From positions 8,980 through 72,979 of the IMG/VR virus record IMGVR_UViG_3300010944_000263: a stretch of DNA of 64,000 bases, one strand, 5' to 3'. Origin of the DNA: a virus (Duplodnaviria; Caudoviricetes). The notes below the pieces were generated by a model. It worked only from the letters and a program-made list of their open reading frames with translations, was not told the DNA's origin and ran no database searches. The position numbers were made by a program, and so were the translations under genes. Each line of letters opens with the position of its first letter. The first letter of the stretch is position 1. Of this stretch, positions 48 to 58,459 are shown one piece after another.

Positions 48-386
48 TCATGCGTGCTCTCGCTCGTCGTACCAGCTACTAGCGGCATCCTGCAAGCATT
101 GCTCCTCGTACCTGTCGTGCCAATCATTTTCGATGATTGCCTCGGCTATCTTGTCCAGCGCATCCCAAGCCCAATGGTCGGTCCTGTGTCGCGTTTCCTC
201 GCCAACTCTCCATACGGTGACGTTGATAAAAGTCCACTCGGCAGAAGAGGACCATCCAGGGTATCCGCTTCCATCTGGATAATACCGCACCATCGGCTCG
301 CATGGATGAAAGTCGTACTTTACCTCCACTTCGAGACTGCTATCGAAACCAAGCTCTTCAAGGATTATCGAGATTGTCCCGCTCAT
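48..386 (-). CDS. Hypothetical phage protein (112 aa)
   Basis: ATG overlaps the helicase stop (ATGA); protein-like composition. Confidence 0.6.
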   Translation of the reverse strand: MSGTISIILEELGFDSSLEVEVKYDFHPCEPMVRYYPDGSGYPGWSSSAEWTFINVTVWRVGEETRHRTDHWAWDALDKIAEAIIENDWHDRYEEQCLQDAASSWYDEREHA

Positions 387-3154
387 TTCCTCACCCTGTA
401 TGGATTGCCTTCGTCGCTGTAATCGTTCACGGTAAAGCCGTAGGTATCTCGCACCTTTCGTTTGCTGTCGGGATGACCATACGGAATCATCTTGTACTTT
501 CTTCCAGCCACTTCGACTGAATCAGGAACTCGGAAATCGGTACCTTGCTGTTCCGCTATCTTCTTGGCGATGTACCACGCCTGCCCCCAAGTTCCTCCAA
601 TATGCCCAGCCTTGAAAAGTGCAATCAGCATTATCTCCTCGGAAGTCCGAAGTTTCTTCTCCGTCTTTACGTTCGACTTCTTAATCTCCCGAAGCTCACC
701 ACCAGTGAACTCTAACCCTTGCGACTTGCGCTCTCTAGCTGTCGGCTCATACCCGCATTGCCGGCACTTTCCGCCGCGATAGATAGCATTGCAATTCGGG
801 CAATTGATTGTCGCTCTTGGCTCATGCGTCTTTGCTGGTCGCTCTCCCCATTCGAGAGTCCACGCAATGTCATCGTCAAAGAATCCATGCTTGCTGATAT
901 TGGCGGCATGATCCAGCACAATGCAATCAGGAACATCGGGATGCACGCGGCTTCCTCGTCCGACCATCTGGCGATAACGAACAACGCTCCCGATTGCTGT
1001 ACACAACTGCACGCATCCCACACGAGGAATGTCGGTGCCTCGCTCGATAACGCCAACGTTGCAAATGTACTGAATCTCTCCGCTGTTCAATCGCTGAAAC
1101 AATGACTTTCGCTCTTCATCATCTGTCTCGCCATCGACATAGTGAGCATCAATTCCATTCTTGCGAAGAATCTCCATCGCCTCGTACGCATGGGATCGAC
1201 GCGGGAAGAACCCAACTGTAGCTCTTCCTTCCGCCAATCGCTTCCAATCCTTCACCAAATCGCCAGCGAGCCCGTCCATCGCTGCTGCCACACTGTCCTC
1301 GGTGTAGTCATCACCACGCTTTACAAGCAGGTTCAGCTTCCCCTGGGTCGCTTGGAAGTAACGGAACGGAGACAGATACCCATTCTCAATCAACCACGAC
1401 GGAGATGGACCCATCACAATCTTACTGAAGACCTTGTTCAACTCTCGGTGCTGCGGAGTAGCAGACAGCCCAAGAATAAAAGGCGGCTTCAATCCTAACT
1501 CGGCTCGCTTCTTGTTGTGCGCCACAAGGAATGTTCTGAACTTCGCAACGTGGCTATGGCAATTATGAACCAGAAGATTGTTTGCAAAAAAACAGTGGCT
1601 CTTTTCTACTTCTATGTCGAACACTTCCGTCTGGCTTGCGGGAACGATTTTCATCACACGACACCAACTTGTATCGCATACATTCTGGGACGTACTTCGA
1701 AATCCGACGACCAATCTCAAGTTGCGTCCAGCTTGCGATTCCGATGAAATATGCGTCCTTTGACCTGTTTTTGTAGACAGAAGCCTTTCCGATGTTGTCA
1801 CAAAACCAGTCTGCAATAACTTCGTTTTCCTTTTTAGAAAAACCTTCCGTGTGAAGAAGCAGCGATTTTTTTGTTGCTGATCCATCATCACATATCCACC
1901 ACGCGAGCCCAATATCCCCAATCGCATCGAGCCATTTTCTGGACACCACTTTTTTCCCTCGACGCTTAACCAGTTTTTCGATTTCAATAAGCGATTGATT
2001 GCATGAAGTGACAGTGACAACAGACTGCTCACCCCAGCCTTCGTTATCAACAACTTTGGTTTTTGCAGCCAATCTATGCAAGAATTTCGCTTTGTGAATT
2101 GCCCACTCTTTTTGAACAAGCCCATGAGTGCTGCTAAGTCTCGGAGATTTTGACCTGCTGTTTGGATATGTGATCGAAGAGTCCCCAAGCAATGTCCCAA
2201 GAATCGCCTGCCTTTCAAGAACAGTAAGCTGAAGCATTTGATTAGTGCTACAGTTTTCGTGTCCGTCGCAATACTGTTTGTATAAGGGCATCGCACCGTA
2301 TGCGATCCATGAGTCAGCTGTCTCAAATCCAAGTCTAGTCCTAACACCACAGCCGCATTTGCAAAAAGGAGCGGCTGCATTGAGTTCTCCCCAGAGCTTA
2401 ACAAAGTGCTCTTTTTTTCCGAGTGATTTATGCCCCCAACAAAACAGCTTTCCTGTTCTAGGCTTTCTTCCACACCCGCATAAGCAAGTATCTCGTCTGT
2501 AGGCAATACGTACTGCGCTTGTAGCCATCCTCGCCTCGTATAAAGCTCGTGATCTGGAGTGCATCGCACTTTTCCTGCGTGCGTATGTATCTCTAGTGTA
2601 GTTTTTGTCCCGCTATGCTTCCAGTTCAAAACACTAGCAAAATGAACTCCTTTTTCTTCGCTGTATGATCTCACTGTCTTAGGTTTTCGATACGGAACTT
2701 GATCTATTCTCATCGCTCCAAGTTCTGTCTCTATAATCGAATCCCCAGAAACGCATTCATCAAACACAAGAAAGTCGTAGGTGAAATCGTTTCGATACGT
2801 TCCTTTCTCAACGTACCAACTGTTCTTGGTATCGATTGAAGCCACTTGCAAATCGCATCCTGGCAACGTGTCAACTCCAGACATGATGACACCATGCGGC
2901 AATCGAGGGTGTTCATCGAACGACGCGCTGGCATTCTCGACGAGCCCGCGACGATGAACCATGAAAGCTGCCTTTCCGCTTTCACCATCTTTCTTTTCGC
3001 GATTCAAATACAAGCCAAGCATGTGCTTCGCACACCGAGTCTTGCCCGCACCTGGAGGCACACAAAAAATCACGCTTCGATACTTTGCTATCTCTCGCCT
3101 GATGTTTGCGACACATTCCTGCTGGTATGGACGAAGCGTAGGAATCTCAATCAT
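383..3154 (-). CDS. SF2 DEAD/DEAH-box helicase (RadD/YejH-like) with C-terminal Zn finger, interrupted by an intein in Walker B
   Basis: Walker A PPGAGKT; DE|CH motif reconstituted after removing the intein; LSATP motif III; RQMVGRGSR motif VI; CPNC..CRQC. Confidence 0.9.
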   Translation of the reverse strand: MIEIPTLRPYQQECVANIRREIAKYRSVIFCVPPGAGKTRCAKHMLGLYLNREKKDGESGKAAFMVHRRGLVENASASFDEHPRLPHGVIMSGVDTLPGCDLQVASIDTKNSWYVEKGTYRNDFTYDFLVFDECVSGDSIIETELGAMRIDQVPYRKPKTVRSYSEEKGVHFASVLNWKHSGTKTTLEIHTHAGKVRCTPDHELYTRRGWLQAQYVLPTDEILAYAGVEESLEQESCFVGGINHSEKKSTLLSSGENSMQPLLFANAAVVLGLDLDLRQLTHGSHTVRCPYTNSIATDTKTVALIKCFSLLFLKGRRFLGHCLGTLRSHIQTAGQNLRDLAALMGLFKKSGQFTKRNSCIDWLQKPKLLITKAGVSSLLSLSLHAINRLLKSKNWLSVEGKKWCPENGSMRLGILGSRGGYVMMDQQQKNRCFFTRKVFLKRKTKLLQTGFVTTSERLLSTKTGQRTHISSESQAGRNLRLVVGFRSTSQNVCDTSWCRVMKIVPASQTEVFDIEVEKSHCFFANNLLVHNCHSHVAKFRTFLVAHNKKRAELGLKPPFILGLSATPQHRELNKVFSKIVMGPSPSWLIENGYLSPFRYFQATQGKLNLLVKRGDDYTEDSVAAAMDGLAGDLVKDWKRLAEGRATVGFFPRRSHAYEAMEILRKNGIDAHYVDGETDDEERKSLFQRLNSGEIQYICNVGVIERGTDIPRVGCVQLCTAIGSVVRYRQMVGRGSRVHPDVPDCIVLDHAANISKHGFFDDDIAWTLEWGERPAKTHEPRATINCPNCNAIYRGGKCRQCGYEPTARERKSQGLEFTGGELREIKKSNVKTEKKLRTSEEIMLIALFKAGHIGGTWGQAWYIAKKIAEQQGTDFRVPDSVEVAGRKYKMIPYGHPDSKRKVRDTYGFTVNDYSDEGNPYRVRK
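1562..2755 (-). mobile_element. Intein (398 aa) in helicase DECH motif
   Basis: Block A CVSGDSII, block B TPDHELYTRRGW, block F VFDIEVE..HCFFAN, block G LLVHN followed by Cys+1. Confidence 0.92.
1563..2528 (-). CDS. LAGLIDADG homing endonuclease (321 aa) overprinted in the +2 frame of the helicase intein
   Basis: Motifs AILGTLLGDSSI and LAWWICDDGS, two CxCGCG..GH repeats at the N-terminus; ATG at 2528 preceded by GAGG (alternative ATG 2564). Confidence 0.85.
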   Translation of the reverse strand: MATSAVRIAYRRDTCLCGCGRKPRTGKLFCWGHKSLGKKEHFVKLWGELNAAAPFCKCGCGVRTRLGFETADSWIAYGAMPLYKQYCDGHENCSTNQMLQLTVLERQAILGTLLGDSSITYPNSRSKSPRLSSTHGLVQKEWAIHKAKFLHRLAAKTKVVDNEGWGEQSVVTVTSCNQSLIEIEKLVKRRGKKVVSRKWLDAIGDIGLAWWICDDGSATKKSLLLHTEGFSKKENEVIADWFCDNIGKASVYKNRSKDAYFIGIASWTQLEIGRRISKYVPECMRYKLVSCDENRSRKPDGSVRHRSRKEPLFFCKQSSGS

Positions 3155-3915
3155 TTCTTACTCCACAACTCGACACCCTGCACCAGCTTGACCAGCTTCT
3201 CTCGCTCACGACTGTTTGGTACCAACTCGTGGTAATCATCGATTGCTCGAACTAACTTATCGCGGTGCTGATTCGCAATGCTCGCTGCTTTCTTCGCCAT
3301 ATCTTCAACGCTAAGCGGCTTGTTAATTGCCTTCTCCAGATTCTTGCTGTCTCCCTTTGCCTTTCTGCCTACCTTCTTCTGCTCTGGCTTCGGCATCTCG
3401 ACCAGCTTTTCCAACGCTGGCTGCGTCAAGTCGACCGCCGCTGCTTGAACGGAGTTATCGACCTGCTCGATCATCTCGGCGCGAACAACGTCTCGATACA
3501 CCTGCCTTTCAGACACCTCGGACTCTTCCGCTACCTTCTGAACAGCCGAACGTTTGTTCTCTCCTTGACTCATGCGGTACTTCACTCTCTCCGCTCGCAG
3601 TTTCGACTGAGCCCCCGGAGTTAGGTTTCGCTGGCTGATTGCATCTCGCTTAATACGGTCCTCAACTTCCTCCAGCGTCTCGGCGTCCTGATAGACCTGA
3701 ATCGTCTCAAACGGCAGCTTGTTCTTCTTGCACAACTTGAATCGATGATGCCCATCGACAAGTAAATCTCCCCACAACCAAAGCGGGCTGTACGCTCTCC
3801 CTTCCTCCAATAGCGATTCTTCCAGTCCCTTGAGCTGCTCGCTATCGAGAGGAGGAATCAACGCTTCGATCCGCTCATCTACTCGCACTTTGCCGTTAAA
3901 CGCTTTTTTGACCAT
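3151..3915 (-). CDS. ParB/Sulfiredoxin-like N-terminal domain protein
   Basis: LIPPL..EQL..LEESL..EG..PL..W..LLVDGHHR pattern; start chosen at ATG 3915 with GAGGAG SD. Confidence 0.75.
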   Translation of the reverse strand: MVKKAFNGKVRVDERIEALIPPLDSEQLKGLEESLLEEGRAYSPLWLWGDLLVDGHHRFKLCKKNKLPFETIQVYQDAETLEEVEDRIKRDAISQRNLTPGAQSKLRAERVKYRMSQGENKRSAVQKVAEESEVSERQVYRDVVRAEMIEQVDNSVQAAAVDLTQPALEKLVEMPKPEQKKVGRKAKGDSKNLEKAINKPLSVEDMAKKAASIANQHRDKLVRAIDDYHELVPNSREREKLVKLVQGVELWSKK

Positions 3916-4141
3916 CGATAGACTCCTCTGGAACTCTTGCGAAATCGCACCGAGGCGACTTCTTGACCAAATCTTTCTCACGCGTGTCAACGTTCGTGCC
4001 GCTGACAAAGTGCCATTGTTCAAAGCCTCGTTGGGTAACGCAAACCAGCCTGTCGAATCCGTGAATGACGTCTTTACGTTCGACATAAACGACGCGACCG
4101 TTACGCATCACCCACCACTCTCCAGGTTTAGGCTTGCTCAT
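3896..4141 (-). CDS. Hypothetical phage protein (MSKPKPGEWW...)
   Basis: Fits tightly overlapped operon; start overlaps the upstream gene end. Confidence 0.55.
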   Translation of the reverse strand: MSKPKPGEWWVMRNGRVVYVERKDVIHGFDRLVCVTQRGFEQWHFVSGTNVDTREKDLVKKSPRCDFARVPEESIDGQKSV

Positions 4142-4547
4142 CCAAAACCTCAACGTCCTCCGGTTTGTACGCGCGGGTGCCCAAACCAACTTTGACATAC
4201 ATCCAAGTTGCGCTGAAGCACCTTTGAAAACCGACTAACTCGCCCTCTTCCTTCAAGGCCCTGCACTGGGCTCCATTGGCTGCATCAAGAAACGTCGCCT
4301 GACGCCATCTTTTTTGCCTCCAGTTTGGACCGTCACAGCCTGGAATGTGCTCAATCAAATTAAAACCATGCGTTTCGTCGTCAGGCAAATACCTTCCGTT
4401 GGGTGTACACACCGAGACGTCATAGTATTCGCCTCCCTGGTACATAACAATCGCGAACGCATACTCGCCCTGCAAAACAGTGCCGACTACCTGTGCAATC
4501 AGGCTCTTGTTTCGACACTGATACCATTGACCAACTTGGATTTTCAT
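4128..4547 (-). CDS. Hypothetical phage protein (139 aa)
   Basis: Protein-like ORF in operon with SD. Confidence 0.65.
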   Translation of the reverse strand: MKIQVGQWYQCRNKSLIAQVVGTVLQGEYAFAIVMYQGGEYYDVSVCTPNGRYLPDDETHGFNLIEHIPGCDGPNWRQKRWRQATFLDAANGAQCRALKEEGELVGFQRCFSATWMYVKVGLGTRAYKPEDVEVLDEQA

Positions 4548-4594
4548 ACAACTCTGCTCCTTTGCTTCTCCTGCTTGAAATCAAAACCGCACAA

Positions 4595-4858
4595 CTACGC
4601 TTCGCCGCCAGACTTGTCAGCCTCAACAGCACTCTCAAGCAAATCGAGATAGCGAGAGTCACGATCTCGCTTCGAGCACTTCTCCATCGGCCATATTCGA
4701 TCAACCATCGCCAACTTAGCCTGATGATCGCTGACCGCGACAATCCAGACGGTAGCCTGCTCACTCGCCGCCGTGAACAGCAGCATGTCGCGCGTGCGAG
4801 CATCTTTGATTGCAGCCAACTCATCATCGTGAACGATTGCTTTCTTTTCTTCCGACAT
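4595..4858 (-). CDS. Hypothetical protein
   Basis: ATG 4858 with GGTGGAG SD; operon context. Confidence 0.55.
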   Translation of the reverse strand: MSEEKKAIVHDDELAAIKDARTRDMLLFTAASEQATVWIVAVSDHQAKLAMVDRIWPMEKCSKRDRDSRYLDLLESAVEADKSGGEA

Positions 4859-4889
4859 GACAACTCCACCATCCACAAAAGGACAAAAC

Positions 4890-5174
4890 CTAGTAAAGAC
4901 GCTCAATAGGCGTCACTTCAAAATTCCCGTCTTCATCACTCTGCAACAAGTAATCTTGATAGCTCACTGCGATGACATACGTTTTCTTCCCGAACAACAT
5001 CTGCCGAATGTCGCAGCAACACTTATTAAACTCGCTGGAAGCCTCCTCGAATTTCTTTTCGGCTGCGATGTATTTCGCGACAGCCCACGATAAATCAGCT
5101 TTTTTCTTACGCTCTAATTCTTCGATGTCCTTTGCCGACAACTCAGAAACATCAACAGGTGAATCTGCACTCAT
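4890..5174 (-). CDS. Hypothetical coiled-coil protein
   Basis: AGGAG SD; helical heptad character. Confidence 0.6.
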   Translation of the reverse strand: MSADSPVDVSELSAKDIEELERKKKADLSWAVAKYIAAEKKFEEASSEFNKCCCDIRQMLFGKKTYVIAVSYQDYLLQSDEDGNFEVTPIERLY

Positions 5175-8790: not shown

Positions 8791-9469
8791 CTGTCACCTC
8801 CTTTAAGATCGCTTTCAAGTCATCAACCGACTTTGGCGCTGAAAACACACGGTAGCTGTTCGCGTCCTGACTTAAGATCAGCGACGGCAATTCCTTGGTA
8901 ACAGACAAAAACGGCTTGGCTGCCTCAAGCTCATCGTCATAGGCAGCGATTTTAATACCGCGAGACTCCAGCATTTTGCGAGTTTCGATAGACAATCGAG
9001 TATTCGTTTGCGGAATCTGATTGATCGCATCGCCCTGCTCGTAAATCCAGACAGCCCACGCCGGCTTGAACTTCGGGTCAGGCTTTGGAGTAGGGGACGG
9101 CTTTGGTTCAGGCTTGGGAGGCTGAGGATCTGGACGAGGATTGACCTCGCCCTCAGAAACAACCTTTAGCAACGTCGATTCACCAGCCGTGATGAGATAA
9201 TCACCAGGAGGAGCCGCGAAAATGGTGTACGAATCAAATCGCTCGAAGTGATCTTCAGATAGATACGTCCACGATACCGAGCCAGCCACCACGTTAGCGT
9301 AGATCGCTTGAACCTTCGCGCCAGCCGGATGATTGATTTTCACTGGACGATCGCGCTTGGCAATCGCCGGAGCCTCCACTTTGTAATGCACCGGCTTGTC
9401 TTGCGAGATTCCGTTGATACCGGAACACAAAGCAAGGCACATCACCAAAACGTAAGAAAGGTTGTTCAT
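8783..9469 (-). CDS. Secreted protein with signal peptide and Pro-rich linker
   Basis: Hydrophobic N-terminus, PDPQPPKPEPKPSPTPKPDP linker, globular C-terminal domain. Confidence 0.6.
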   Translation of the reverse strand: MNNLSYVLVMCLALCSGINGISQDKPVHYKVEAPAIAKRDRPVKINHPAGAKVQAIYANVVAGSVSWTYLSEDHFERFDSYTIFAAPPGDYLITAGESTLLKVVSEGEVNPRPDPQPPKPEPKPSPTPKPDPKFKPAWAVWIYEQGDAINQIPQTNTRLSIETRKMLESRGIKIAAYDDELEAAKPFLSVTKELPSLILSQDANSYRVFSAPKSVDDLKAILKEVTGE

Positions 9470-29415: not shown

Positions 29416-29518
29416 CAAGTTGCACCCACCCTAACTACATGCTCAAATAAAGCGAGCCGTTTGGAACATGGTACTTCCAAACGGCCCTAACCACCATGGA
29501 CCTAAGAAGGAGGCTCAA

Positions 29519-30364
29519 ATGGCTAAAAACGATTCTACAGCAGCTCGTCCCCGCGTCAAAGACATCTCTGGACAGCAATTTCACGACCTGACCGCAATTA
29601 GCTATGCCGGCACAAACCTCGGAAGCCAAGCAGGAGCATACTGGACATTTCGATGCGTATGCGGAACTGAAAAAATACTGAACGGTCGTGCTGTACGATC
29701 TGGGTCTACCAAATCGTGCGGCTGCAGCAAGCATCGCACAAATGAAGTCGGAAACACTTACTTCAAGCTGACGGTCATCGAGTTCGCTGGCAAATCTAAA
29801 GGCGGAGACTCTCGTTGGCTTTGCAGGTGCGAGTGCGGAAACACAACCGTCGTTGACAGGGCAGCATTTCGAAAAGGAAGCATAAAGTCTTGCGGATGCC
29901 ACAGAGCCCGAGCAGGAGGTAGATGCGAAACTTCCGAGTACACTTCCTGGAAGGAAATGAAAAGACGATGCGACCCAGACTACAAAGACAAGCACCTGTA
30001 CGCCGAAAGAGGAATCACGATTTGCGAAAAATGGGCTAACAGCTTCAACGCTTTTTTTGAAGACATAGGACCAAAACCATTTCCAGAAGCCACAGTAGAT
30101 CGAATCAATAACGACCTCGGATACTTTCCCGAAAACTGCCGATGGGCGACAAAGCTCGAGCAAAGCCAAAACACTCGCAAAGCACGCATGTTGACGTTCA
30201 ATGGCGAAACTCTTTGTTTGCGAGAATGGGCAAGACGACTTGGAATTACGCACGCAACTCTGGCAAGTCGCATCAATAAAGGATGGGAACCGGAGAAGAT
30301 ATTTTCTAGCGAACACTATTTCTCTCCTCCTCCTAGAAAAACCAAGAAGAATAAGCAGGACTAA
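29519..30364 (+). CDS. Free-standing HNH homing endonuclease, antisense to the late operon
   Basis: Two W.CRC.CG...SCGC domains, WKEMKRRC, RGITIC, TVDRINNDLGYFPENCRWAT, C-terminal HTH; AGGAGG SD. Confidence 0.85.
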   Translation: MAKNDSTAARPRVKDISGQQFHDLTAISYAGTNLGSQAGAYWTFRCVCGTEKILNGRAVRSGSTKSCGCSKHRTNEVGNTYFKLTVIEFAGKSKGGDSRWLCRCECGNTTVVDRAAFRKGSIKSCGCHRARAGGRCETSEYTSWKEMKRRCDPDYKDKHLYAERGITICEKWANSFNAFFEDIGPKPFPEATVDRINNDLGYFPENCRWATKLEQSQNTRKARMLTFNGETLCLREWARRLGITHATLASRINKGWEPEKIFSSEHYFSPPPRKTKKNKQD

Positions 30365-55065: not shown

Positions 55066-57873
55066 TTATCGTCGCAGAACATCCTTAATTCCATATCTAG
55101 GACTTCCTGGATTTGATACACGACGATCTTGCTGCTCGCGCCATAAAAACGAGCCATACTCTGGATTTTTGCCTTTTTCATCACCACTGTCAACTTTCTC
55201 GCCTGAATTGTCCGTCGAGTAGACCAGCCAAGCACCTGCCGCGGCAATTGCCCTATCACCGTGGTTCTTGTCCGTAGCACCCTTGTTTTTAGTAGGTGCG
55301 TGAACAATCTTAGACCCTTCCCATTCGTACTCTCCGCACTCAACTAGCATATCGGCCGATCTCGGAATGTACTTTCCCTGCTCCATGGCTAACGCGAATT
55401 GCTCGAACATGTCCGCCTTATCCGCATCGCGACACGGGAACCCAGGCTTACGACTCTTCTTCTGCGATCCAAGCTGCGTCACGTTTCGATAAAAGATGTT
55501 TCCGTAGTACAAAACCTCCATGACCTCCTTCGCGAAACCACTCGATACACCTGAGTCTTCCCATCCAAGTTTCGCTTTACGCATCCAAAGACACAAGCCA
55601 ACGACGATCCTTGCGAACGGACGAGGCTCTAGCCCTTTAATCGTATACTCGAGAACTTGCTCGCCTGTTCTATCGTCGATACCAGACGCAATCGAGTTCG
55701 ATGCGTACGCTCCTGTTCCTCCAGATGCGATATCGCACGCAATCGTAAACGGACCAAGCGGAGGGCTGTCATCAATCCCTGGCTTAAACCAAAGCACAAG
55801 AGGACCATCTTCGCGTTCAATCAAACCTTTTAGTTCTAACGTCTCGCTATCAAAGACAGGTGTTCCTTTCCACACTGGATTCTTCGAATGCGTCTTCTTC
55901 ATGCGGTCGAGCAAATCGGAAGTGAACACCTTCCCAACAGCTCCTTTCGGATTCCTATCTAGCTGAGACGCAATCAACTGAGGACGAGCTGTCTTTCGCA
56001 AACATCGCATGTCGTACCATGGCGACCGCACAACGCCTTCGTACTTAAAACCTTTCTTCTCGAGCAAATCACGCAAATCAGGTTTGCTTCGATGATACTC
56101 TGCAACCGCTTCCGCATCTTCAGGCTTGATAGCAACAGGCTTGTTGTCTGTTACGATGTACGAATGCTTCGAGTGAACGGGATGATCTTTCCAATCGAGG
56201 ACAAGATGCCATCCGCCCTCATCTCCCTTCGCTTCACATGCTTCGTGAAAAACGCCCTGGTCAATATACCTCGCTGAAACAAGCCTCAAGCACCCAGTCA
56301 CATCGTGTAGCGATTCCATTACGGCGTAGTCTTTTCCACCAGACACAAAGTCTTTCGCGCCGGCTTCGTCCATCGTGAACACTGTCGCTCTACCACCAGC
56401 AGCAACGTCTTGCCCTGCCGAGTAACCTTTGAGCAACGAACCATTGTCTTTGTTCTCGAACGTGTGCTGGCTCAAGTTTCGCTCATAGTTCGGCTGCATC
56501 CAAGCTGGAAGCATGTTGATTGCAAACTGCACCTTCCAAAGAACAGTGTCTGAGTCCGTCTTGCTATCAACGAGGTCCGCGTTACGTGTCACATATCCAG
56601 CCGAGAACATCTTGTCGCAAAGCCATCTTCGCAAATCAACCCACAGATATCCAAACGTACCTCCCTGAGCTCGAGCCTTGTCCACCAGAACGTCCAACGT
56701 CTTCTCGTTCTTCGACGTGTAATCAATCGCTTCATCGAGAGCTCGAAACACCTTCTCTTGATGCGGATACGGAATAAACGGAACCACTTTGAACTTCGCC
56801 CGCGGATCGTACCCGTAGCAATTATGAACTATCAACGGCTTGTCGTTTGCGTCTAAAACAGTAAAGCACTGCCTTGGGCCGCAATTCAAGAGGTCGTATA
56901 CCTCCGAGACCTGTTCGCTGGCATCAAAATTTCGACCGGAGAAAATCCATTCTTTATTCGATACGAAACTGCTGGGTGAGTTAGTCCAGTACGATTCATA
57001 ATTTCGTAAATCGTCATAGGACCTTCTGATGTTTCGTACTTTTTCATCGTTCGCTGCCGTTGGTTTTTCATTTGCTCCGACCATGTTGCCCATCGGCAAT
57101 TGCTTGGTTCGTAATTTCCGTCGTTGTTTATTCGGTCCAAAGTCTTGTCGTCTGGCGGATCTCCCATGTCTGCATAAAAATTCTCGAACTTCATCCATCT
57201 TTTGCAAACAGTGATTCCTCGACCTCCGTAGTCTTTCCATCTTGAATTTCTGGGGTTGAAGCATCTCTGCATCATGTGCGACCATCTGCTGAAAACAGAA
57301 CTTTTGCTTTTCCCGTGAACAATCTTTGATGTTGCTGACTTGCAACCGCAACTTGTGCTTTTTCCTCCTCGAAGATTGTCCCCAGAAACTGTCAACTCTT
57401 TCCCGCACCTGCACTGGCAAAGCCACGCTGCTCTTGTTGTGTTTCTGTAATTTCCATTTCTTTGAATAACCTTCAGGTAACCGAACACTTGCCCGGTCAT
57501 GTCTTTCAATTGCTTGCTTCCAGCCATTTTTTGTCCAAATCTTGTGGTCAGGAGTAACATCTATTTCATAGGCAAATATACTTCGCTTACGACCTTTATA
57601 AACAGATCCTCCTTGTGAAACCCAATCGTTTCCGTCCCAAACTAAATCAAGTTCTGTAACTTCTTCAATTGGGACAGGACCACGATCAGTTACAACTCGA
57701 GTCCCTTTTCCAATACATGCTGCCGCCATGAAGAAACAAACGTCATCCATACACGCTTGCCAAAACGCATTTCGAAACTTGATGTCTGTCAACGCACGCT
57801 CTCGGCATCGAATTCGCCACTTCAAGTTTTCTATAGGATCCTTCGGAACCAAATCGTAGTACAAACCGCTCAT
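55066..57873 (-). CDS. terL: Terminase large subunit with intein
   Basis: PFIPYPHQ, VDKARAQGGT (Walker A variant), TMDEA (Walker B), IACDIASG and HGDRAIA nuclease motifs. Confidence 0.88.
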   Translation of the reverse strand: MSGLYYDLVPKDPIENLKWRIRCRERALTDIKFRNAFWQACMDDVCFFMAAACIGKGTRVVTDRGPVPIEEVTELDLVWDGNDWVSQGGSVYKGRKRSIFAYEIDVTPDHKIWTKNGWKQAIERHDRASVRLPEGYSKKWKLQKHNKSSVALPVQVRERVDSFWGQSSRRKKHKLRLQVSNIKDCSREKQKFCFQQMVAHDAEMLQPQKFKMERLRRSRNHCLQKMDEVREFLCRHGRSARRQDFGPNKQRRKLRTKQLPMGNMVGANEKPTAANDEKVRNIRRSYDDLRNYESYWTNSPSSFVSNKEWIFSGRNFDASEQVSEVYDLLNCGPRQCFTVLDANDKPLIVHNCYGYDPRAKFKVVPFIPYPHQEKVFRALDEAIDYTSKNEKTLDVLVDKARAQGGTFGYLWVDLRRWLCDKMFSAGYVTRNADLVDSKTDSDTVLWKVQFAINMLPAWMQPNYERNLSQHTFENKDNGSLLKGYSAGQDVAAGGRATVFTMDEAGAKDFVSGGKDYAVMESLHDVTGCLRLVSARYIDQGVFHEACEAKGDEGGWHLVLDWKDHPVHSKHSYIVTDNKPVAIKPEDAEAVAEYHRSKPDLRDLLEKKGFKYEGVVRSPWYDMRCLRKTARPQLIASQLDRNPKGAVGKVFTSDLLDRMKKTHSKNPVWKGTPVFDSETLELKGLIEREDGPLVLWFKPGIDDSPPLGPFTIACDIASGGTGAYASNSIASGIDDRTGEQVLEYTIKGLEPRPFARIVVGLCLWMRKAKLGWEDSGVSSGFAKEVMEVLYYGNIFYRNVTQLGSQKKSRKPGFPCRDADKADMFEQFALAMEQGKYIPRSADMLVECGEYEWEGSKIVHAPTKNKGATDKNHGDRAIAAAGAWLVYSTDNSGEKVDSGDEKGKNPEYGSFLWREQQDRRVSNPGSPRYGIKDVLRR
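56821..57717 (-). mobile_element. Intein (299 aa) in terminase
   Basis: Block A CIGKGTRVVT, block B TPDHKIWTKNGW, block F VYDLLNCG..CFTV, block G IVHN then Cys+1. Confidence 0.92.
56886..57527 (-). CDS. HNH homing endonuclease (213 aa) overprinted in the +1 frame of the terminase intein
   Basis: WLCQCRCG..SCGC, WSHMMQRC, YGGRGITVC, TLDRINNDGNYEPSNCRWAT, C-terminal HTH. Confidence 0.88.
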   Translation of the reverse strand: MAGSKQLKDMTGQVFGYLKVIQRNGNYRNTTRAAWLCQCRCGKELTVSGDNLRGGKSTSCGCKSATSKIVHGKSKSSVFSRWSHMMQRCFNPRNSRWKDYGGRGITVCKRWMKFENFYADMGDPPDDKTLDRINNDGNYEPSNCRWATWSEQMKNQRQRTMKKYETSEGPMTIYEIMNRTGLTHPAVSYRIKNGFSPVEILMPANRSRRYTTS

Positions 57874-58029
57874 CTTCTTCGCCAATCGAGTTAGTTGGTA
57901 TGGTTCAAGTACGCTTGAGCAAACCACACAAGCATCGCAGCAACCAGCATCCAAAATAAACATCCGCCAGCGTCAGGCTTCTCGTTACTCATGCTATCCA
58001 TTCGATAAAGAACGCCATTTCAAATTCTT

Positions 58030-58162: not shown

Positions 58163-58459
58163 CTATCGCAACAAAGCCTCTCGCAAACTCATCACCTTCA
58201 GCCTAGCTCGCAACGTCGACTCCGGAACGCCAGCAAAATCAGCCCACTCGCGTATCGACATCCTTTCGCCATCATGCTCGAGCCCACATCCACCGCAGCT
58301 TCGAGTATGACCACTTCGAAGATGATCCAACCGCACCACCGGCGCCGCACCACACGAACATCGACACAAAAACATTCGCTTCGTCCCTACCTGCGGCTCC
58401 TCACGCACTACCACCAAATCACCAAACCTCGCACCAACCGCTATTTCCAATCGTCGCAT
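58163..58459 (-). CDS. Internally deleted HNH derivative (DNA-binding domains only)
   Basis: FLCRCSCG..SGHTRSCG joined directly to GERMSIREWA..GVPESTLRARL; catalytic segment absent. Confidence 0.6.
   Translation of the reverse strand: MRRLEIAVGARFGDLVVVREEPQVGTKRMFLCRCSCGAAPVVRLDHLRSGHTRSCGGCGLEHDGERMSIREWADFAGVPESTLRARLKVMSLREALLR

Follow-up and report, generated by a model that had tools for sequence, protein, structure and literature searches.

A TerL intein with a predicted free-standing-type endonuclease gene in the +1 frame of its linker

We analysed a 64,000-nucleotide stretch of a Caudoviricetes virus (the window; positions 8,980 to 72,979 of the 72,979-bp IMG/VR record IMGVR_UViG_3300010944_000263, which is rated complete) that carries an intein within a gene for a putative large terminase subunit (TerL). 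The evidence makes it very probable that this is a cis-splicing class-1 intein with a homing-endonuclease gene of the free-standing type overprinted in the +1 frame of its linker. The TerL-like precursor is encoded by an uninterrupted open reading frame (ORF) of 965 amino acids (aa) counted from its first ATG (55066-57963, minus strand, as are all window features below unless the plus strand is given), in which the intein separates an N-extein ending in ...FFMAAA (57718-57963) from a C-extein starting with CYGYDPRAKF... (55066-56820). Both the intein and an endonuclease hidden in its +1 frame had been proposed in an earlier note on this DNA, made from the sequence alone.

The intein and the gene overprinted on its linker

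The intein spans 299 aa (56821-57717), from C1, which follows ...FFMAAA, to ...IVHN, which precedes CYGYDP, and bears the marks of class 1, exactly as the earlier note had described it. Blocks B (TPDHKIW) and F (VYDLLNCG) map to intein residues 55-61 and 273-280, respectively, and the approximately 210 in-frame codons between them (about 205 in the earlier count) hold no stop and no recognisable motif. Modelling with AlphaFold2 (AF2), with a 66-sequence alignment as input, yielded a HINT fold for the N-terminal splicing domain (residues 1-90, 57448-57717, with C1 and the T55..H58 pair of block B) at a predicted local distance difference test score (pLDDT) of 94-98, and a pLDDT of 97 for the C-terminal splicing domain (residues 268-299, 56821-56916, with block F and the ...VHN of block G, followed by the +1 Cys). 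Between them runs an in-frame 'shadow' linker of 177 aa (residues 91-267, 56917-57447) devoid of secondary structure (pLDDT 42-58). The modelled splicing domain matched the Mtu RecA intein (Z 14.3, root-mean-square deviation (rmsd) 2.5, 113 aa) and, in all, 69 intein or HINT chains at Z of at least 8; the intein family profile also matched the Mtu RecA mini-intein (E 3e-5), while the Pfam intein model stayed below threshold on the window intein sequence. On these comparisons the splicing domain is predicted to adopt the HINT fold of a class-1 intein. Residues C1, T55, H58, D275, G280 and N299 are invariant in 66 relatives and H298 is nearly so, and every one of the 66 distinct full-length relatives combines C1 and an open host frame with [HS]N followed by a +1 Cys or Ser. 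N- and C-exteins are directly joined, with no intein, in about 75 of 80 relatives of the C-extein on viral contigs; the insert is therefore optional, as expected of an intein.

The +1 ORF extends over 56886-57560 and, from a conserved ATG at 57527 to a TGA at 56886-56888, encodes a predicted nuclease of 213 aa (56886-57527) that matches phrog_374 (E 1.3e-63) and is modelled by AF2 at pLDDT 89. Its ATG is formed by the intein codons AAT GGC (the N-G of ..KNGWK.., after block B) and its stop by TTG AAT (the L-N of block F); gene callers run on other assemblies start relatives at the same MAG... position. Across this gene the host frame has no stops against a mean of 14.2 in synonymous shuffles that preserved the nuclease protein and its codon usage, and none of 20,000 such shuffles was open (P<5e-5). 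The two off-frames of a free-standing paralogue encoded elsewhere in the window contain 8 and 16 stops. The same holds for 59 full-length loci with an intact +1 ORF, where the host frame has 0 stops versus 531 expected and the other off-frame, taken as a control, has 4-22 per locus; these loci had been chosen by full-length tblastn, which favours open frames and in that respect tempers the result, the margin being very large. At two loci, L102 and L208 (L numbers designate individual loci throughout), 4-5 of 300 shuffles were open; in high-GC phages, chance alone can leave an off-frame of 200 codons open.

Substitution patterns further evidenced which of the two frames is maintained as a protein. 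Differences at frame-0 codon positions 1/2/3 between the window and its closest relative, L242 (same TerL site; nuclease 70% identical), amounted to.24/.22/.63 in the N-terminal splicing domain,.53/.21/.17 in the nuclease overlap and.23/.09/.68 after the nuclease stop. The pattern thus switches at the ORF boundaries, and it recurred in ten other pairs. In a +1 layout, position 1 of frame 0 is the third position of the nuclease codon, and wobble at that position means that the nuclease protein is conserved and the host frame merely kept open. Likewise, amino acid identity in the overlap ranged over 52-84% in the nuclease frame versus 29-57% in the host frame among ten pairs, and was 60-63% versus 33-36% in the three closest ones; the nuclease frame is therefore the conserved one, the opposite of what the earlier note had named as a refutation, a decayed nuclease frame beside a conserved intein frame. 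Within the overlap, purifying selection acts on the endonuclease frame and not on the host frame, and the shadow linker is translated with TerL under the sole constraint of lacking stops. The shadow peptide is also slightly more hydrophilic than that of synonymous shuffles (Kyte-Doolittle (KD) -0.89 versus -0.80; 47 of 59 loci). We did not conclude that its composition is selected, as dropping T-initial codons to avoid stops gives the same shift.

Nature of the +1 product

Three modules can be traced in the 213-aa protein. Residues 4-62 (57342-57518) form a small beta-barrel with four conserved cysteines (CxC...CxC) and SH3/Tudor/KOW-like matches (Z 4-5.6); C39, C41 and C60 are invariant and C62 is nearly so (at least 90%), which points to a probable zinc-bound DNA-binding module. 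Residues 68-160 (57048-57326) carry a putative diverged beta-beta-alpha-metal (His-Me finger) core, ..LDRINNDGNYEPSNCRWAT..EQ..N, modelled as a strand at 129-132, a second strand at 144-147 and a helix at 149-154, whose best solved match is PacI (3m7k_A; Z 5.8, rmsd 3.1, 79 aa). Residues 164-200 (56928-57038) make up a C-terminal helix-turn-helix (HTH), with weak matches to HTH families in many members and model helices at 173-200. Alignment of the nuclease profile to I-HmuI (E 0.19) placed R132 at the general-base His. R132, Y139, N143 and N155 are invariant in 36 sequences; the Asp before R132 is also kept in the I-HmuI alignment, N143 and N155 fit the conserved Asn and the metal-ligand helix position of the I-HmuI motif, and Y139 sits in the 133-143 loop between the two core strands. 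PacI itself is a His-Me finger enzyme without the His, which is replaced by a Tyr in the loop between core strands, and PacI-like enzymes constitute group 20 of the superfamily, with an HTH-like partner domain (PMC5714182). The window nuclease has the HTH as well, but at its C-terminus. On model and conservation, the nuclease probably belongs to the His-Me finger superfamily as a PacI-like member without the His, and is probably active.

This assignment retains much of what the earlier note called a complete HNH endonuclease, namely the intact +1 ORF at 56886-57527 and its family match, together with its kinship to the free-standing gene (29468-30364, plus strand; phrog_374, E 2.5e-71; 35% identical). 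The HNH label itself fared less well; it comes solely from the annotation of PHROG 374, no Pfam or NCBIfam HNH model recognises the protein, and the diagnostic His is an Arg. The family is large and mostly made up of free-standing genes, with at least 7925 proteins at E 1e-10 or better, none of them with a Pfam domain, and with matches in 1236 phage records.

Several observations weigh against an active, separately translated endonuclease. The PacI match, at Z 5.8, falls below the level that the tool calls safe; the canonical general-base His is replaced by the invariant R132; and no Pfam or NCBIfam HNH model matched the window nuclease or any of 35 relatives. A Foldseek search of the whole nuclease model against the PDB returned nothing below E 0.3, which says little because the model comprises several domains with a predicted template modelling (pTM) score of 0.55. 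The +1 protein product is itself a prediction from sequence. Signals for its translation are modest, with a weak GGA about 8 nt before the nuclease ATG in the window, a Shine-Dalgarno-like (SD-like) motif in 17 of 41 relatives, and several relatives lacking an ATG in the expected place. As regards an internal promoter, a weak sigma-70-like match (57602-57575, minus strand; TTTATA-16-TATATT, 9/12) belongs to a region count of 4 versus 1.8 +/- 1.4 in shuffles. Located within the intein N-domain, this match precedes the candidate nuclease starts by 15-48 nt. As the count is not clearly above that of shuffles, we did not take an internal nuclease promoter at 57602-57575 as evidence.

There is some chance, albeit a small one, that the +1 protein is a DNA-binding protein without nuclease activity, kept for regulation or site recognition, and that the element spreads by recombination or through another nuclease. 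The Arg at the general-base position and the lack of HNH model matches among all 36 members would fit such a protein, as would the view that a His-Me finger group is inactive if it has neither the His nor an equivalent Tyr (PMC5714182) and the presence, directly upstream of TerL, of a 98-aa relative with the N-terminal module alone. However, the invariant Y139 occupies the loop where PacI has its His-replacing Tyr (PMC5714182), and the residues aligned to the metal ligands of I-HmuI (the Asp before R132; N155) are kept. Moreover, the element has entered unrelated genes at many positions, and the nuclease clades follow these positions, as site-specific cleavage predicts.

The nuclease could also arise if ribosomes reading TerL underwent a programmed +1 frameshift, which would fuse it to the N-extein and the intein N-domain. 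We consider this quite improbable. Weak or absent SD-like motifs before many starts and the relatives without an ATG speak for it, but the +1 frame of the window has a stop 12 codons before the ATG, and in most relatives an ATG precedes the conserved KD[LM]TG motif by 5-21 codons. Several clades have GAGGT (from His-Glu-Val) or AAGGA 11-13 nt upstream of this ATG, supplied by the codons of block B. Further, no conserved slippery site was seen, and gene callers predict the free ORF on other assemblies.

A fractured gene, with a split intein joining separate N- and C-terminal TerL polypeptides, is scarcely credible: the layout is known from metagenomes (Dassa 2009, PMC2677866) and a gene caller reported one relative as a nuclease gene with a separate TerL piece downstream, yet the total absence of host-frame stops from the window and 59 relatives, against the 531 expected, is explained only if ribosomes must read through. 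Virtually no weight attaches either to an assembly or sequencing artefact, a possibility raised in the earlier note, or to a +1 ORF that is a decaying relic: in-frame fusion of the nuclease is confined to a single locus (L201), whose contig has 1.7x coverage and whose C-extein is out of frame, whereas independent assemblies show the two-frame layout at 112 non-redundant loci and the finished genome of APSE-1 shows it as well, frame 0 would then carry about 14 stops, and substitutions in +1 are those expected of a protein under purifying selection.

We therefore favour a cis-splicing TerL intein with an overprinted homing endonuclease, which could operate as follows. Ribosomes reading TerL would pass straight through the intein, and residues 1-90 and 268-299 would fold into the HINT domain around the disordered shadow linker. 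As judged from fold and catalytic residues, the intein would then excise itself and join FFMAAA to CYGYDP; the essential role of TerL and the open host frame lead us to infer splicing. Other ribosomes would start at the internal ATG (57527) and produce the Zn-barrel/PacI-like His-Me finger/HTH protein. In a mixed infection this protein would cut or nick an intein-less TerL gene at the insertion site, and repair would then copy intein and nuclease gene together, a step suggested by the distribution of the element. The unit is one member of an old and mobile family.

Spread, decay and history of the intein family

Relatives were collected by an alignment search of viral and metagenome contigs and of genome assemblies, seeded with the 4 of 80 TerL relatives that harbour a related intein. 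In all four, which occupy three different sites in TerL, the nuclease is again in +1 and the host frame has stayed open. The search added 160 loci from viral and metagenome contigs and a further 10 from bacterial or archaeal genome assemblies (metagenome-assembled genomes among them), at least 4 of these 10 with the nuclease in +1. Carriers also include a Parapusillimonas prophage (L246). Exact peptides of the single intein protein had no match on viral contigs; it was the alignment query that found the relatives. Once duplicates were removed, 146 related inteins remained: 112 have the nuclease in +1, 15 have it in +2 and 1 has it in frame, and 18 have none of at least 100 aa. The sole in-frame case is L201, where the C-terminal splicing domain and the C-extein are thrown out of frame on the low-coverage contig mentioned above, and the fusion looks like a one-base error. 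Overall, the family occupies at least 10 insertion sites, with at least four in TerL and three in DNA polymerases in addition to helicase-like genes, the polymerases including that of APSE-1 (P45). The +2 loci (L125, L140, L141, L154, L202 and ten others) sit at DNA polymerase motif B, and their nucleases form one group with 100% support.

The genetic code may contribute to this 112-to-15 excess of +1. In the +1 layout, each host codon combines the third base of a nuclease codon with the first two bases of the codon after it, and a host stop arises only where NNT precedes AA, AG or GA. Since NNC is always synonymous with NNT, any host stop can be removed at no cost to the nuclease. In the +2 layout, Met followed by Ile, Met, Thr, Asn or Lys is not synonymously fixable.

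Signs of decay and loss were also evident. At L086 (1381-2283) and L166 (55-963), the nuclease ORF is broken, with longest pieces of 125 and 143 aa, respectively, and the host frame is open; from sequence, these are likely decaying endonucleases in inteins that still splice. The mini-inteins L194 and L199 retain the start of the nuclease ORF in +1 (its first ~25 codons) and are therefore deletion products rather than precursors. Broken nuclease ORFs and mini-inteins are consistent with the usual homing cycle, in which elements spread, decay and are lost. Regarding targets, sister elements hold three other TerL sites, all of which are empty in the window gene, so that the window TerL is a potential target of several related elements. 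For the element at L089 and L094 (TerL ...SPWYDMR|CLRKTA...), the same peptide stands uninterrupted in the window C-extein.

The element is distributed sporadically; the closest TerL relatives (86% identity) have no intein, and L242 (71%) and L025 (69%) have it at the same site. Intein-less TerL alleles occur, among others, at L001 and L002. At L164, TerL is only 26% identical to that of the window, versus 52% for the nuclease and 43% for the intein, which indicates transfer between distant genes. In a FastTree phylogeny of 188 nucleases, in which most database proteins come without known genomic context, intein-borne nucleases cluster (11 label changes versus 51 in shuffles). The window nuclease belongs to a clade of TerL-intein nucleases with 99% support, whose subclades match insertion sites, and the two free-standing paralogues of the genome branch elsewhere (35-38% identity).

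The comparison with free-standing enzymes that the earlier note had suggested thus sets the window copy apart from both paralogues. The paralogue at 29468-30364 is not the source of the intein copy, and a recent invasion of a mini-intein by it was ruled out by tree and identities. As judged from the same data, the unit was inherited or transferred whole and not built in this genome. The scenario of the earlier note, in which a free-standing HNH gene entered a mini-intein as a safe harbour, is plausible in that the family is mostly free-standing, but such an invasion would be old and would have taken place outside this genome. We rejected L194 and L199 as representatives of an ancestral mini-intein lacking the insert, for which the earlier note had suggested a search among relatives, on account of their nuclease-ORF remnants.

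Other two-frame inteins and the terminase locus

The window contains a second two-frame intein, in a superfamily 2 (SF2) helicase gene (383-3154; DE|C...LLVHN|C), with a LAGLIDADG_2 ORF (1563-2564; Pfam E 2e-24) in +2. Its host frame has 0 stops versus 5.7 expected, and none of 2000 shuffles was open. The two units therefore differ in nuclease family and frame, LAGLIDADG_2 in +2 and PHROG 374 in +1, as the earlier note had anticipated.

Two-frame inteins are an already described kind, reported for other nuclease families in publications of 1998 and 2025-2026. According to papers citing it, Gorbalenya 1998 noted endonucleases in another frame or strand of an intein. Actinophage inteins comprise an Endo VII-like enzyme in 'frame 3' as well as antisense LAGLIDADG and Vsr-like enzymes, and a cyanobacterial dnaX intein has a LAGLIDADG endonuclease in a +2 ORF (Phillips, DeSimone, Gogarten, bioRxiv 10.64898/2026.09.14.751524). 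Both the actinophage and the dnaX papers propose an origin from free-standing endonucleases, as the earlier note did, and call the architecture rare. As in the actinophage units, the endonuclease is encoded on the same strand as the intein but in another frame, between the splicing blocks; TerL and DNA polymerase are among the hosts, the in-frame middle lacks recognisable structure and the distribution is sporadic. The TerL unit differs in its PacI/I-HmuI-like PHROG 374 enzyme, in the +1 frame and in the >100 environmental loci, as opposed to an Endo VII-like enzyme in 'frame 3' that is rare there. With the dnaX intein it shares a disordered in-frame linker, a confident model of the alternative-frame nuclease, selection on the nuclease frame, and the coexistence of mini-intein and empty alleles within the family. 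The dnaX unit, by contrast, combines LAGLIDADG, +2 and a bacterial chromosomal gene, and resembles rather the helicase intein of the window.

The same element family has long been present in GenBank, in the DNA polymerase P45 of Hamiltonella phage APSE-1 (NC_000935), with the nested ORF P46. The class-1 intein of P45 (...GGKS|CLAKGT ... IVHN|CEN...) keeps its host frame open, and its +1 frame encodes the same nuclease, which shares 39.5% identity with that of the window and likewise ends inside block F. Unlike in the window, the host is a DNA polymerase, and the record annotates the C-terminal 141 aa alone as P46 'HNH endonuclease'. The APSE-1 literature, in the portions available to us, mentions the intein and its variable presence and not the two-frame design.

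Two further arrangements are partly comparable. The metagenomic fractured genes (Dassa 2009, PMC2677866) also have a free-standing-type endonuclease gene at the point where an intein takes up its endonuclease, in genes for phage replication and packaging, but there the host frame is broken and splicing occurs in trans, whereas here it is open and cis-splicing is expected. ShiLan-type methylase insertions (Arsenault et al. 2025, PMC11855218) likewise hide an out-of-frame HNH gene in an open host frame; they have no splicing domain and the insert is thought to be retained, unlike the complete intein described here. A PHROG 374 nuclease in +1 was not among the published out-of-frame intein types that we found in the literature.

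On a broader scale, we tentatively suggest an obligately out-of-frame mobile intein family (0 credible in-frame cases among 128 relatives with a nuclease) in which overprinting is a stable end state, the +1 preference is driven by the code and the nuclease represents a large, Tyr-cutting PacI-type branch; this proposal is clearly more speculative than the reading of the window unit. If it holds, overprinting would not be a passing stage toward a fused intein-endonuclease, and the PacI-type branch would embrace the at least 7925 proteins without a Pfam family, in which a Tyr would stand in for the canonical His. None of this alters how intein homing is basically understood. The main value of these data lies in evidence that two-frame inteins are common and stable: called rare in the literature, they make up here a whole family at >100 environmental phage and prophage loci, with the same frame offset recurring across terminase, polymerase and helicase-like genes. 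Such loci also offer a clean natural system for DNA shared by two frames, one of which needs only openness, and a pointer to a very large uncharacterised nuclease family without the textbook histidine in its active site.

There is also a practical side, as gene callers and intein surveys will systematically miss or mis-split such genes, and two-frame loci are probably widely mis-annotated. At L242, gene calling returned the nuclease ORF (2636-3274) and a 573-aa TerL fragment (3376-5097) as separate genes and missed the precursor that reads through.

As for the host gene itself, TerL and the C-extein alone matched no Pfam, PHROG or NCBIfam family, with no terminase model above threshold, and a sequence search of the C-extein against solved structures gave no match. 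Its identity as TerL rests on tblastn matches to annotated large terminase subunits of many phages, which cover C-extein residues 1-221 to 1-274 at 25-29% identity, with E values down to 6e-13. The gene adjoining TerL is weakly portal-like. Homology to TerL relatives begins near an ATG at 57873 (MSGLYYDL...), 30 codons inside the ORF, and from this alignment it is probably a likelier start than the first ATG at 57963.

Directly upstream of TerL, in the usual position of the small terminase gene, lies the 98-aa gene mentioned above (58163-58459). Its product shares homology with the Cys-rich barrel at the N-terminus of the nuclease family (phrog_374, E 4e-13) and ends in an HTH-like tail. By this homology, a packaging-site recognition protein may have been built from an endonuclease DNA-binding module, or the reverse. 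The position of the gene is kept at L242 (1997-2293) and in ~25 intein-less TerL relatives, roughly 300-600 nt upstream of TerL.

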